Of a stretch of DNA of 64,000 nucleotides, positions 1 to 2,903 are shown piece after piece; positions within the stretch are counted from its first letter, which is position 1, and each line of letters opens with the position of its first letter. Location of the stretch: contig CAZQMV010000008.1 of assembly GCA_964594635.1 (NCBI GenBank), positions 59,813 through 123,812 of the forward strand. Reading direction: 5' to 3'. The position numbers and the translations under genes are program-made. Below the pieces are notes generated by a model, which ran no database searches, was not told the DNA's origin, and saw only the letters and a list, made by a program, of their open reading frames with translations. Source of the DNA: Uncultured Candidatus Berkiella sp. GTDB taxonomy: Bacteria; Pseudomonadota; Gammaproteobacteria; Berkiellales; Berkiellaceae.

Positions 1-2601
1 AGTATACCGTCGAAGGGAGCTTATTTACTCACACAATTGGATAGTATATTAGATCAATTGTTTAATGATCCTACCGTTAAAATGCAAGTGAAAGAGATCT
101 ATGCAGCAGGGATTGATATATATCGTCATGCCCCGGTGCAATTAATGGTGTGCATGGAGGCTTTAGGCGCCTATGTGAATCATGGGCAGCAAACAGATCA
201 TTTCGTCACGATTCTGTCTGAAATCGCACAGTCGCTGGTGAATAACCAACAAGATCCAACTACGTTGTTGGCAGATTTTGTTCTGACGGCACCATTTTAT
301 AAATCAGAACATTTAACTGATCTTGATCGTAACACGCTTAGAACACAAGTAACGACGGATATTCAGGCTAAGAAAATGTTTTCTGAAGTGTTATCTACAG
401 TATCGAGCGCAAGTGTCAGTATGGTGGCGCAAAATTGTGTGGCAAGTTTAACTGCTGTTAATCCCGAGATAAGAGGTTATGTCAATGAGGGGATACGTGC
501 TTTATATACACAATGGTTTAATGAACCCGCTACCGTTCAAGAGAACTGGTCACACTTGCAAAGTTATTTGAACTATGGGGTGTTATCACACTCAGCTGCC
601 GTTTCACTAGACCATTTAGCAAAAGTTCAAGTATCGCAAGGTAAAGATTATACTGAAGTAATCACTGTTTTAACTTTTAACAATCAGCATTATCTGAAAT
701 TCCAACAAGATCCCCAGATGTTGGCTGGTTTTGAAACACATCTTCGTCAAAGTCTGCAAGAAGTGACTCAGGCTCCGCCTGAAGAAAAGACTGCTAAATT
801 GCATGAAGTATTGGCTAAAGAACGTCAATATTCGATTGATACGTATGTGAAGAGCTTAAAGGGTGGCCAAGAAACCACGAATGATTATAAGAATATTTTG
901 CATAATAAAGAAAGAAAATTTAGTGCAGATGGTTTATCTGAATATGCCGCCCAGATTTTGGTTTTCAATAGCACTTACTACTTTGGCAATTTAACGCCGC
1001 AACAAAAGCTTGAGATGCAAGGGTTTTTTAGAGGATTTTTCAATCATATTCAAGGCGGAAAGTTCAATGAAGATGCGGTTGTTAAGAATTATAACCGAGC
1101 GCTAACGTTTATTACCTGCGGTTCTTATATGGACTTGGTAATGTCAGGAGTGGCGGTTGATGGTAATGTTGCGCAGATTTTTAGTGGTTTCAATTCTAAT
1201 GAGGTTCGTGCAGCAGTTGCAGCTTATGAAGTGAATGCCATGGTAGCTGATGCAAAAGGCTATTCGCCATTATCGTTCCAAGCGACATTTGATCTTTATC
1301 GCAAATTTTTTGACCAGCAATTTGCGAGCTCTAAAGATAAAGTCGAAAGTGGTATTCGAGATATTGTGAATGAAACGTTGCGCAAGCAAGACCAAACAGG
1401 GGGTAACTATGGTTTGGTGTTAGACAGCAAGACCCTTGATCAAGCCGCAGATTTTGTGGTGCAAAGCTCTAAGCAAATTGGTGAGAACCGTTGGCCAGGT
1501 ACGGGTGATGCGTTTGCTAGAACCATTGATGATCATTCAAAAGGTCACGCCAATCGATTGTTATCCTCCTTGGGGAAAAATATTCGTATAGGTATTAAGA
1601 AGACGGGTACTACGGTGAGTGTGGGTTTACAAACCAATGGATCGATTGTGATACCAACGCTAACACATGTGGGTTCGGGGACAGAGGTTGCGTTGAGTAA
1701 TCCTTTTGCAACGCCAAGCCTTACCCTTACCATTCCAGAAAGAGTGACTACAGGTGAAAGTTCAAGTACAGCGTTGGTGCCAATAACGCCTGTGTTATAT
1801 TCGCCGTTGGCTGTGACTGAGAAACGAGCGCCACGTAAAAGACCTGTAGCTCCGGCTTTACTGCGACCCATTGCCCCTAGGGTGAACGAGCCTGTAACGC
1901 AATTGATCCCGACTTATGGGGTAGGTAAAGCCAAAAAATTTGATTTGGTACCTGAATTACCAGAGTCATTATTAACGTTACCCCAACCCTCTAATCCTGG
2001 GGCAGTTATGACTAATACTGACAGAAGTTTTGGTGATAGGTTGCTTAGCTGGGTAGGAATTGGAAACGCCGAGGCGAATCCGGTGGCTATACCATTGATG
2101 GGGATGGCTGTTGGAGCTGCTGCAGCTGCTGCAGTACCAGCTATATCAAGAAATCCTCTTGATTCCTTAAGGCAAACAATGGAAGATTTCCCTACAGAAC
2201 ATCCAGCAGTGGTAGCTGCTGCGGATAGTCTAAGAACGGCTGTTTATGTTACGACTTTTCCTAGTCTGGCGAAGAACGATACTCTTGGGCTTTTCAAAAA
2301 ATCTAAGCAAAATGATAAGCCAAGATTACATGCGCCAGATCCGGATAAGAGTTATGTTCCTGCACCGAAGGAGTTGCCTGGATTTCCGGATGCAAAGGTT
2401 GCTAAAGGTACAACTCCTTATCCGGGAGGCATAAGAAAAAGATGGAAAACTCCAGATAAAAAAATATTAGAGTGGGATTATCAACATGGTGAGATTGAAC
2501 TGTATGACAAAAAGGGGAAGCACTTAGGTGCCTATGACCCAAATACAGGAAATATAGTTAAACCAGCCAAAGATGACCGAAATATTAAGAAGTATCTATG
2601 A
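1..2601 (+). CDS. Polymorphic toxin (5'-truncated by the window) with C-terminal colicin E3/cloacin-type 16S rRNase (Cytotoxic) domain
   Basis: C-terminus GGIRKRWKTPDKKILEWDYQHGEIELYDKKGKHLGAYDPNTG...RNIKKYL matches the colicin E3 catalytic domain (EWDxQHGExE with the D/H/E catalytic residues; terminal RNIKKYL). Frame +1 has no stop between base 1 and the TTG at 37, so the true start is upstream of the window. Confidence 0.88.
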   Translation, partial: SIPSKGAYLLTQLDSILDQLFNDPTVKMQVKEIYAAGIDIYRHAPVQLMVCMEALGAYVNHGQQTDHFVTILSEIAQSLVNNQQDPTTLLADFVLTAPFYKSEHLTDLDRNTLRTQVTTDIQAKKMFSEVLSTVSSASVSMVAQNCVASLTAVNPEIRGYVNEGIRALYTQWFNEPATVQENWSHLQSYLNYGVLSHSAAVSLDHLAKVQVSQGKDYTEVITVLTFNNQHYLKFQQDPQMLAGFETHLRQSLQEVTQAPPEEKTAKLHEVLAKERQYSIDTYVKSLKGGQETTNDYKNILHNKERKFSADGLSEYAAQILVFNSTYYFGNLTPQQKLEMQGFFRGFFNHIQGGKFNEDAVVKNYNRALTFITCGSYMDLVMSGVAVDGNVAQIFSGFNSNEVRAAVAAYEVNAMVADAKGYSPLSFQATFDLYRKFFDQQFASSKDKVESGIRDIVNETLRKQDQTGGNYGLVLDSKTLDQAADFVVQSSKQIGENRWPGTGDAFARTIDDHSKGHANRLLSSLGKNIRIGIKKTGTTVSVGLQTNGSIVIPTLTHVGSGTEVALSNPFATPSLTLTIPERVTTGESSSTALVPITPVLYSPLAVTEKRAPRKRPVAPALLRPIAPRVNEPVTQLIPTYGVGKAKKFDLVPELPESLLTLPQPSNPGAVMTNTDRSFGDRLLSWVGIGNAEANPVAIPLMGMAVGAAAAAAVPAISRNPLDSLRQTMEDFPTEHPAVVAAADSLRTAVYVTTFPSLAKNDTLGLFKKSKQNDKPRLHAPDPDKSYVPAPKELPGFPDAKVAKGTTPYPGGIRKRWKTPDKKILEWDYQHGEIELYDKKGKHLGAYDPNTGNIVKPAKDDRNIKKYL

Positions 2602-2612
2602 AGAGGTTTTTA

Positions 2613-2903
2613 ATGAAAAATGATGTTTCAGGAATAAAAAGAGTGATCATGGGTTACAGTAAAATACCGGATGAAGACGGAGATTGCTTTTTGGAAGTTG
2701 AATATAGTCTTAAACCAGTTGATTTACAGTTTTTGCAAAAACTCTTTAACATCGATCCCAATGATTCTGAGGCAGTAAATCGAGATCTTATTCTTTGCTA
2801 TCAAATAAACAAGGAACAAGCAGAAGCATTACAGCCTTATGTGATTGATGGGGTGATTGATTTGGACAAATATGATTTTATGTTGGAGTGTTATCAGGAG
2901 TAG
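2613..2903 (+). CDS. Cognate immunity protein, distant Im3/cloacin-immunity-like
   Basis: Small acidic ORF directly after the toxin. GAGG RBS precedes ATG 2613; alternative ATG at 2598 overlaps the toxin stop. CYQINKEQAEALQPYVIDGVIDLDKYDF resembles the Im3 C-terminal segment CFDV..EW...LQPYFNHQIDI. Confidence 0.75.
   Translation: MKNDVSGIKRVIMGYSKIPDEDGDCFLEVEYSLKPVDLQFLQKLFNIDPNDSEAVNRDLILCYQINKEQAEALQPYVIDGVIDLDKYDFMLECYQE

Follow-up and report, generated by a model that had tools for sequence, protein, structure and literature searches.

The window analysed here is a 64,000-nt stretch of contig CAZQMV010000008.1 from an uncultured Candidatus Berkiella sp., and it opens within a large toxin gene: bases 1-2601 of its forward strand encode the C-terminal 866 residues of a 1921-residue polymorphic toxin. 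From its N-terminus, the full-length protein consists of an OTU fold of the Legionella Lot class, ankyrin repeats, a helical region with a ~110-residue module in variable copy number, a proline-rich spacer, a hydrophobic helix and an exchangeable C-terminal cassette. Here the cassette is a ribosomal RNA-cleaving ribonuclease (rRNase) of the colicin E3 type, with an immunity gene overlapping its stop codon. Judged by its sequence and those of its relatives, the protein qualifies as a true polymorphic toxin: different tips, each with its own downstream partner, sit on a common chassis, and this chassis is not of the RHS, FHA or colicin kind.

The window opens inside the gene for a 1921-residue toxin

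Read from base 1, frame 1 of the forward strand meets its first stop codon at 2599-2601 (TGA), after 866 codons. The initial annotation of this DNA, made from its letters alone, had read this open frame as the end of a protein longer than 866 residues, and the full-length sequence agrees: the window translation is 100% identical to residues 1056-1921 of a 1921-residue protein, P0001 (we refer to proteins by P numbers, to loci by L numbers, and to residues counted from base 1 as window residues). The earliest start listed for this frame is a TTG at 37; the gene nevertheless extends upstream of base 1. The window opens 55% of the way into the gene and holds its 3' 45%, with the gene start ~3165 nt upstream. 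A Logan metagenome contig reaches 1414 nt beyond window base 1, and the window sequence is present in metagenome runs only. Exact look-ups of P0001 and of the immunity protein led to no contig.

1..2601, + strand: 3' part of the toxin gene, residues 1056-1921 of 1921 (open frame, identity to P0001, contig extending upstream)

The toxin is one of a small family. When 1.84 billion representative proteins were searched exhaustively with window residues 1-780 (E ≤ 1e-3), only 12 matched, the best being P0001 and the others 11 homologues. A word-indexed homologue search gave no matches for the whole window protein or for the carrier alone; a genome scan matched the tip only and not the carrier, and a metagenome scan yielded one further locus (L019). 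Two members are publicly named, both as 'ankyrin repeat domain-containing protein', from a Candidatus Berkiella sp. and a Candidatus Berkiellales bacterium, and the family has so far been seen only in Berkiella/Berkiellales-type metagenome-assembled genomes (MAGs) and metagenomes. The closest tip and immunity pairs in reference genomes lie in a Ca. Berkiella MAG (L002) and in an uncultured gammaproteobacterial MAG (L001). The Berkiella lineage is amoeba-associated (PMC9803151), and the relatives from Candidatus Berkiella and Berkiellales MAGs bear out the earlier placement of the toxin in such a bacterium.

The tip is a colicin E3-type rRNase

2356..2598, + strand: colicin E3-type cytotoxic rRNase domain (window residues 786-866; catalytic D825, H828, E832 and H841; Pfam, ColE3 structures)

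Pfam Cytotoxic (PF09000) matches window residues 786-863 over model positions 1-80 of 80 (E=3.9e-25, 88.4 bits against a cut-off of 22), and is the sole Pfam domain above cut-off in the window part of the toxin. Two colicin E3 chains of known structure, 1e44_B and 1jch_A, match window residues 769-866 at E~1e-14; the match to full-length ColE3 (1jch) spans residues 448-551 only. The catalytic motif, EWDYQHGEIELY...KHLGAYD, is in register with EWDSQHGELEGY...QHLGSFD of ColE3, column for column. D510, H513 and E517 of ColE3 are all retained, as is the second His stressed where the catalytic residues of the E3 domain are defined (excerpts of PMC3482391). The tip is ~54% identical to the ColE3 rRNase, and both end in RNIKKYL. 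By these residues the E3-type rRNase is intact, as had been proposed from its D/H/E residues and the RNIKKYL terminus.

E3 domains make a single cut in the decoding centre of 16S rRNA (A1493/G1494), upon which translation stops, and Im3-type proteins block them through tight binding. By analogy with colicin E3, the tip would likewise cut small-subunit rRNA once at this site and halt translation, and by analogy with Im3, the immunity protein would bind the tip in the producer and spare its own ribosomes.

The immunity gene belongs to the DUF7683 family

2598..2903, + strand: DUF7683-family immunity gene (ATG 2598 in an ATGA overlap with the toxin stop; likely start ATG 2613, 96 residues, with AAGAGG at 2601-2606)

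The open reading frame (ORF) behind the tip, already taken for an immunity gene, proved to be a member of DUF7683 and is translationally coupled to the toxin. Its homologues begin at the position of ATG 2613, and AAGAGG lies 7 nt upstream of that codon; on these two grounds, the real product is probably the 96-residue protein initiated there. It matches the Pfam family PF24731 (DUF7683) with E=4e-12 and 46.7 bits against a cut-off of 27, and does not match Cloacin_immun (PF03513) at E ≤ 1. Orthologues 64-70% identical to it stand behind the E3 tips in L001, L002 and L013-15, and ORFs matching the Pfam DUF7683 model stand behind those of L019 and L020, giving DUF7683-family partners behind E3 tips in 7 related loci. 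The immunity proteins also carry short acidic C-terminal tails (CYQE, CYEDK, CYAEE, CFAEDPD), encoded at 2880-2900 in the window and found at the same position in L001, L002 and L019.

The DUF7683 model also matches the canonical ImmE3 of Proteus (E=3.8e-9, 71/84 residues), and a profile-profile comparison of DUF7683 with ImmE3 by hhalign, using small alignments of our own, gave 55% probability over 23 columns. Among the E3 loci of the genome scan, enterobacterial ones paired with canonical Cloacin_immun, and those of Paraburkholderia, Saccharopolyspora and Psychrobacter paired with DUF7683-like proteins. Our literature search found no paper mentioning DUF7683. These matches and pairings suggest that DUF7683 is an immunity family related to ImmE3, although the homology is not fully settled.

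One chassis carries exchangeable cassettes

The initial annotation had called the protein a polymorphic toxin and had looked to homologues with the same chassis and different tips. Such homologues exist: on chassis with 23-46% identity we found four tip types, each with a matching downstream gene. The E3 tip is present in P0001, P0002, P0004, P0006 and P0010, and an Ntox17 tip in P0005. A third tip (…FRTSNDG[KR]WH…), common to P0003 and P0011, and a fourth (…SVGSGSTADGARYD…), in P0007, belong to no Pfam family. Identity changes abruptly at a junction motif: from there on, the window protein is 65-73% identical to the homologues with E3 tips and no more than 10-25% identical to P0003.

2284..2325, + strand: junction motif LGLFKKSKQNDKPR (window residues 762-775; sliding identity, alignment)

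The downstream partner follows the tip. Every E3 tip examined precedes a DUF7683 gene (window, L013-15, L019, L020), and the Ntox17 tip precedes Imm31; both Ntox17/Imm31 and E3/Imm-Cloacin are pairs catalogued in polymorphic toxin systems (Zhang et al. 2012, excerpts of PMC3482391). The third tip precedes a protein of 232 or 235 residues, 47% identical between its two loci, on carriers that are very divergent (~25% identical to P0001). The fourth precedes a DUF7674 gene. The third tip with its 232-235-residue ORF and the fourth with DUF7674 are candidates for new toxin-immunity pairs.

L017 13110-14308, L021 5113-5820 and L018 7708-8753: unnamed tip-partner regions, comprising the third tip (P0003/P0011) with the 232/235-residue ORF and the fourth tip (P0007) with the DUF7674 gene

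The genes upstream of P0002, P0003 and P0004 are alike in order, strand and size. Because the neighbourhood of P0003 resembles those of P0002 and P0004 but its tip and partner differ, the cassette seems to have been exchanged on the spot within a neighbourhood that otherwise looks shared. Two further loci carry the E3 cassette in short proteins. In an uncultured gammaproteobacterial MAG (L001 9797-12272), a stand-alone 173-residue E3 ORF starts at the family junction motif. Behind it lie a DUF7683 gene, a pair of small ORFs (one of them weakly matching DUF6966) and a second, orphan DUF7683 gene at 11979-12272, an arrangement that resembles a small locus of orphan cassettes or of multiple immunity genes. 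In the Candidatus Berkiella MAG (L002 5933-6919), a 226-residue protein has ankyrin repeats fused directly to the E3 core (Pfam positions 18-80) and is accompanied by a DUF7683 gene; the big toxin may exist here in miniature, or else this protein arose from it by deletion. There were no orphan cassette arrays downstream of full-length family genes.

The usual delivery modules of polymorphic toxins are absent. Pfam models for RHS/YD, TPS plus FHA, PAAR/VgrG, WXG/LXG and MafB-N found no match in P0001-P0010 at E ≤ 0.01, and we rejected RHS, FHA, PAAR, LXG and colicin translocation or receptor-binding carriers accordingly. The initial annotation had seen no RHS/YD, FHA, PAAR, LXG or colicin motifs within the window, which these Pfam searches uphold. 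It had also named a standard RHS, FHA or colicin carrier upstream as one result that would overturn its proposal; what lies upstream is instead an OTU fold and ankyrin repeats.

Upstream of the window, a Lot-class OTU fold precedes ankyrin repeats

The 1055 residues upstream of the window are recognisable: a Lot-class OTU fold, degenerate in P0001, and then ankyrin repeats (residues ~330-800). Residues 9-208 of P0001 match LotA OTU1 of Legionella (E=2.5e-4), and a profile built from seven family N-termini also matches Ceg23/LotB through the helical-lobe insert. This sequence similarity to the Lot effectors is weak (E 2.5e-4 to 1e-3). An AlphaFold model of P0004 1-408 had a predicted local distance difference test (pLDDT) score of 87, and the top 7 Foldseek hits to it were all Legionella Lot deubiquitinases, including LotA OTU1 and Ceg23, at probability 1.00, with other OTUs next. 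No signal peptide was found in P0001, whose N-terminus begins directly with the OTU Cys-loop. A hydrophobic stretch at P0001 868-893 was considered as a membrane domain and dropped, as it is not conserved as a transmembrane segment among homologues.

The OTU of P0001 is degenerate, with Ser14 at the position of the catalytic Cys, Tyr at that of the putative 'HWQ' His (a His assigned by motif and not via alignment to a solved structure) and the helical lobe deleted. The lobe insert is also missing in P0002 and P0003, and the OTU is degenerate in 5/7 N-termini, P0001 among them. P0004 and P0006 retain the Cys, the 'HWQ' His and the helical lobe, and their OTUs are apparently active. The carrier had been described as unrecognisable. 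That description holds inside the window, where neither fold nor sequence found a match, and fails upstream of it. The further claim of an undescribed delivery class was too strong, since OTU- and ankyrin-bearing polymorphic-toxin-like proteins of intracellular bacteria, though not the present family, are outlined in excerpts of PMC3482391 and PMC6133264.

The loss of the OTU catalytic residues in P0001 raises the question of whether this is a deployed weapon at all. GC content falls to 33-36% across the tip and immunity gene from 41-48% just upstream, as in a foreign cassette, and together these features would fit a decaying or domesticated gene, or a toxin-antitoxin-like addiction module kept in the producer. 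We think this very improbable, as the frame is intact across 1921 residues, the catalytic residues of the tip are intact, the whole chassis is conserved among relatives only 23-46% identical, and an addiction module needs no 1900-residue chassis.

The window part of the chassis is helical and carries a repeated module

43..375, + strand: helical module copy 1 (window residues 15-125; family-alignment hidden Markov model (HMM) on P0001 1070-1180, independent E value 7e-42; AlphaFold helices)
457..753, + strand: helical module copy 2 (window residues 153-251; same HMM on P0001 1208-1306, independent E value 3e-10)
754..1605, + strand: best-conserved helical core (window residues 252-535; ENRW motif at residues 495-498; 50-65% identity to P0002-4, invariant columns, pLDDT 80-90)
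1606..2025, + strand: conserved G.G..TNG...H..SG beta-hairpin-like motif, then a low-complexity spacer rich in Pro/Thr/Ser and Pro/Arg (window residues 536-675; alignment columns, composition, low pLDDT)
2026..2148, + strand: conserved SFGDRLL..IG.A.ANP motif, then an Ala/Gly-rich hydrophobic helix (window residues 676-716; alignment, Kyte-Doolittle)

Window residues 1-785 match no Pfam or NCBIfam family at E ≤ 1 save noise, and have no sequence match in the PDB; a sequence profile of the carrier also found no match among PDB sequences. An AlphaFold model of P0001 800-1640 had a pLDDT of 75 overall and 80-90 in the core, and is all-alpha up to window residue ~535, in agreement with the ~500 residues of helical carrier described at the outset. 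The Foldseek comparison with the PDB that had been proposed for the carrier returned no significant fold (best E 0.12, generic solenoids such as CRM1).

The ~110-residue helical module is present twice in the window protein, once in P0003 and P0004, and three times in P0005, P0007 and P0010. Pairwise self-alignment of two module copies is weak (z about 2.8). We call two copies in the window because the family HMM finds both and because the DNA contains direct repeats spaced 456 nt apart (55-71/511-527 and 239-257/695-713), and not from the pairwise self-alignment.

Beyond the core, Pro, Thr and Ser make up 33% of window residues 551-690 versus 20% over the whole window part, which substantiates the P/T/S-rich spacer of the initial annotation. 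The SFGDRLL..IG.A.ANP motif and the hydrophobic helix behind it are the last element common to all tip types, and ~45 variable residues separate the helix from the junction motif. The mean Kyte-Doolittle hydropathy of the helix is 1.86 over 19 residues in P0001 and 1.9-2.05 at the aligned position in P0003, P0004, P0006 and P0010; it is weaker in P0011 (1.59) and falls under the threshold of 1.5 in P0002, P0005 and P0007. Neither this element (residues 676-716) nor the two-copy module had been mentioned before.

Export and target of the toxin

The absence of a signal peptide, together with the position of the OTU Cys-loop (residue ~14, like that of LotA), suggests that the toxin would be exported without Sec. 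The machinery would be encoded elsewhere in the genome. Our guess, from the lineage and the effector-like front end, is that the likeliest candidate is the Dot/Icm type IVB system carried by Berkiella; cultured Berkiella have a type I secretion system (T1SS) and Dot/Icm, and no type 2, 3, 5 or 6 systems (PMC9803151). Since the C-terminus differs from one tip type to another, any export signal would have to lie within the protein. The last 35 residues of the toxin are basic, as set by the toxin fold, and by eye differ between tips. No secretion-system gene adjoins any family member examined.

As to the target, we tentatively favour, only slightly ahead of a host-directed role, the reading that the toxin acts mainly on other bacteria in a common amoebal host. 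Every tip has its own immunity gene, the cassettes are of catalogued polymorphic-toxin kinds, and an orphan immunity gene is present in L001. By its title, a 2004 report by Luo and Isberg is said to describe transfer of proteins between bacteria by Dot/Icm. A type IVB system can kill bacteria (PMC9519443), and both bacterial and host cells can receive proteins from such systems.

Several observations weigh against this reading. Secretion, route and target of the toxin are themselves inferred. By eye, the family C-termini have no conserved signal resembling an E-block, and the ORFs of at least 150 residues in the 64-kb window include no match to a dot/icm family. OTU and ankyrin domains fit the eukaryotic cytosol and not a rival bacterium, and P0004 and P0006 keep both catalytic residues of the OTU. 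E3 tips persist on very divergent carriers (24-28% identity) with no orphan arrays behind full-length genes, both of which are more suggestive of a stable function than of a rapid arms race. Immunity would be required for self-protection whatever the target, so that the presence of immunity genes does not by itself discriminate.

The rival proposal is that the toxin is a host-directed effector. It would be translocated, probably via Dot/Icm, into the amoebal cytosol or nucleus, where its tip would cut 18S or mitochondrial small-subunit rRNA and shut down host translation; the ankyrin and OTU domains would bind host partners, and immunity would serve as self-protection before export. The closest solved relatives of the N-terminal fold are the Legionella Dot/Icm effectors LotA and Ceg23/LotB, ankyrin repeats are many, and the catalytic Cys and His survive in two members, P0004 and P0006. 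The Berkiella MAG has its 226-residue ankyrin-E3 fusion with the same immunity gene, family neighbourhoods are rich in effector-like genes (RasGEF, J-domain, ankyrin), and E3 tips have been kept across deep carrier divergence. In isolated eukaryotic ribosomes, colicin E3 itself reportedly cleaves 18S rRNA (PMC4639596, citing Turnowsky 1973). Set against this proposal are the degenerate OTU of 5/7 N-termini, including P0001 with Ser and Tyr at the catalytic positions and its lobe deleted, the immunity genes that accompany all four tip types, with E3/Imm-Cloacin and Ntox17/Imm31 catalogued in polymorphic toxin systems, and the orphan immunity gene in L001. We also know of no host-aimed rRNase effector. 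We regard a host-directed effector-toxin as less likely than not, yet only slightly behind the reading in which rival bacteria are the target. Its more specific form, in which Dot/Icm-type effectors acquired toxin-immunity cassettes of interbacterial origin and now deliver them to the eukaryotic host, with an E3 tip that cuts 18S or mitochondrial rRNA and an immunity protein that is purely self-protective, we hold to be rather unlikely. Should that form be true, the toxin would be, as far as we know, the first host-aimed rRNase effector and the first cassette-swapping cross-kingdom polymorphic toxin system from a Legionella-like bacterium.

The toxin might also leave the cell by another route: through lysis, as colicins do; through a type I system, for instance that at 56866-63043 in the window; in outer-membrane vesicles; or through an undescribed system that uses the helical carrier and hydrophobic helix for translocation. 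The toxin has neither a signal peptide nor a C-terminal Dot/Icm-like signal, a conserved Ala/Gly-rich hydrophobic helix lies just ahead of the tip, the tip already resembles colicin E3 from ColE3 residue 448 on, ahead of the ~96-residue rRNase fragment, and a T1SS is encoded in the window. We nonetheless find such a route improbable. The toxin has no RTX repeats or C-terminal T1SS signal, its C-terminus being variable, and there is no lysis gene and no colicin receptor-binding or translocation domain. The T1SS at 56.9-63 kb was rejected as a likely exporter for its distance of 54 kb, its own LapG-like partner and the lack of a T1SS signal in the toxin. A contest between bacteria within a shared amoeba remains our preferred, if tentative, account, and the toxin gives a specific handle on the question of whether bacteria that live as obligate intracellular associates of amoebae fight one another within their host or turn bacteriocin-type RNases on it.

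Gene neighbourhoods and the rest of the window

Family members have housekeeping genes as neighbours (lptD-surA-pdxA-rRNA adenine dimethylase (ksgA-type)-phosphoesterase, folB, plsY, dnaG-rpoD); the other neighbours are unannotated or effector-like (RasGEF, a J-domain protein, ankyrin proteins). In the window, the intergenic region behind the immunity gene (2904-3280) contains two near-perfect GC-rich hairpins, at ~3010-3029 (GTCACTGC/GCAGTGAC) and ~3061-3082 (GCAGCACCGC/GCGGTGCTG). Neither has a T-tract, and they could be terminators or repetitive extragenic palindromic (REP)-like elements. Scanning the window for Rfam families and tRNAs gave no hits.

Several other clusters were apparent. 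A Lap-like T1SS cluster at 56866-63909 encodes an ABC transporter with an N-terminal C39-like domain, an HlyD-type fusion protein, a LuxR-type response regulator, a TolC-like outer-membrane protein and a BTLCP/LapG-like transglutaminase-type protease; it probably exports and releases an adhesin and has no link to the toxin. Two adjacent autotransporter genes at 20152-21627 and 21618-25118 (491 and 1166 residues) have C-terminal beta-domains; type V systems are reported lacking in cultured Berkiella (PMC9803151), so the organism of the window differs in this respect. A sulfatase beside its formylglycine-generating enzyme (3281-6158), together with a cluster at 9892-18013 of a methyltransferase, two epimerase/dehydratases, a GT2 glycosyltransferase and a 977-residue TPR-sulfotransferase-methyltransferase fusion, suggests a sulfated surface glycan. 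A 1368-residue ORF (46744-50850) and a 490-residue ORF (10625-12097) have no Pfam match, and a 448-residue ORF (8399-9745) weakly matches DUF818 (Chlamydia CHLPS); all three are possible further effector-like genes.

Comparison with known systems

The cassette is closest to colicin E3 and cloacin DF13 with ImmE3 (PF09000, PF03513). It shares with them an rRNase ~54% identical, with the D/H/E/H residues and RNIKKYL kept and similarity running from ColE3 residue 448, and an immunity gene that lies directly downstream and overlaps the toxin stop. It differs in its immunity protein, which belongs to DUF7683 and not to Cloacin_immun. Unlike E-group colicins, the locus has no translocation domain, receptor-binding coiled coil, lysis-type ORF or plasmid context.

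The front end is closest to the Legionella Lot effectors (LotA/Lpg2248, LotB/Ceg23) in its N-terminal fold, with the Cys-loop at residue ~14 as in LotA and a helical-lobe insert in the family that matches Ceg23. P0001, unlike these, lacks the catalytic Cys and His and the helical lobe, and the Lot effectors themselves have neither a toxin cassette nor an immunity gene. Intracellular bacteria also have large modular proteins in which OTU, ankyrin and toxin modules occur together, as outlined in excerpts of work on endosymbionts (Tox-PLOTU, Zhang 2012; pLbAR_38-like proteins, Gillespie 2018, PMC6133264); these mostly lack immunity genes and are read as host-directed. In those excerpts we found no report of a Lot-type OTU, of the present helical carrier, or of such a chassis ending in E3 or Ntox17. 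Our literature searches found neither a chassis of Lot-OTU, ankyrin repeats and helical modules with E3 or Ntox17 cassettes nor the Berkiellales distribution. Spaid of Spiroplasma is likewise a modular toxin with OTU and ankyrin domains.

Bacteria-killing effectors of type IV secretion systems (X-Tfe of Xanthomonas/Stenotrophomonas and the kib type IVB system of P. putida, PMC9519443) resemble the toxin as effector-immunity pairs that are cytosolic and, in those systems, delivered by contact; they set a precedent for the killing of bacteria by a type IVB system. Unlike them, it has no XVIPCD domain, and its gene lies outside any secretion-system island.

With polymorphic toxins such as Rhs, CdiA, MafB and LXG (excerpts of PMC3482391), the family shares a constant chassis, exchangeable tips, cognate immunity genes, the same cassette on divergent chassis and a conserved junction motif. 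Unlike those systems, it has no recognised trafficking module, no linked secretion gene and no orphan array behind full-length genes. Polymorphic toxins are classed by their delivery chassis, and the present one fits no catalogued trafficking class. DUF7683 is suggested to be an ImmE3-type immunity family, with candidate immunity roles for DUF7674 and the 232-residue family. With its Lot-type OTU fold and ankyrin repeats, the chassis is built of parts typical for effectors that work in the eukaryotic cell, and the family thus connects interbacterial toxin cassettes with Dot/Icm-type host effectors, two fields that are usually separate.

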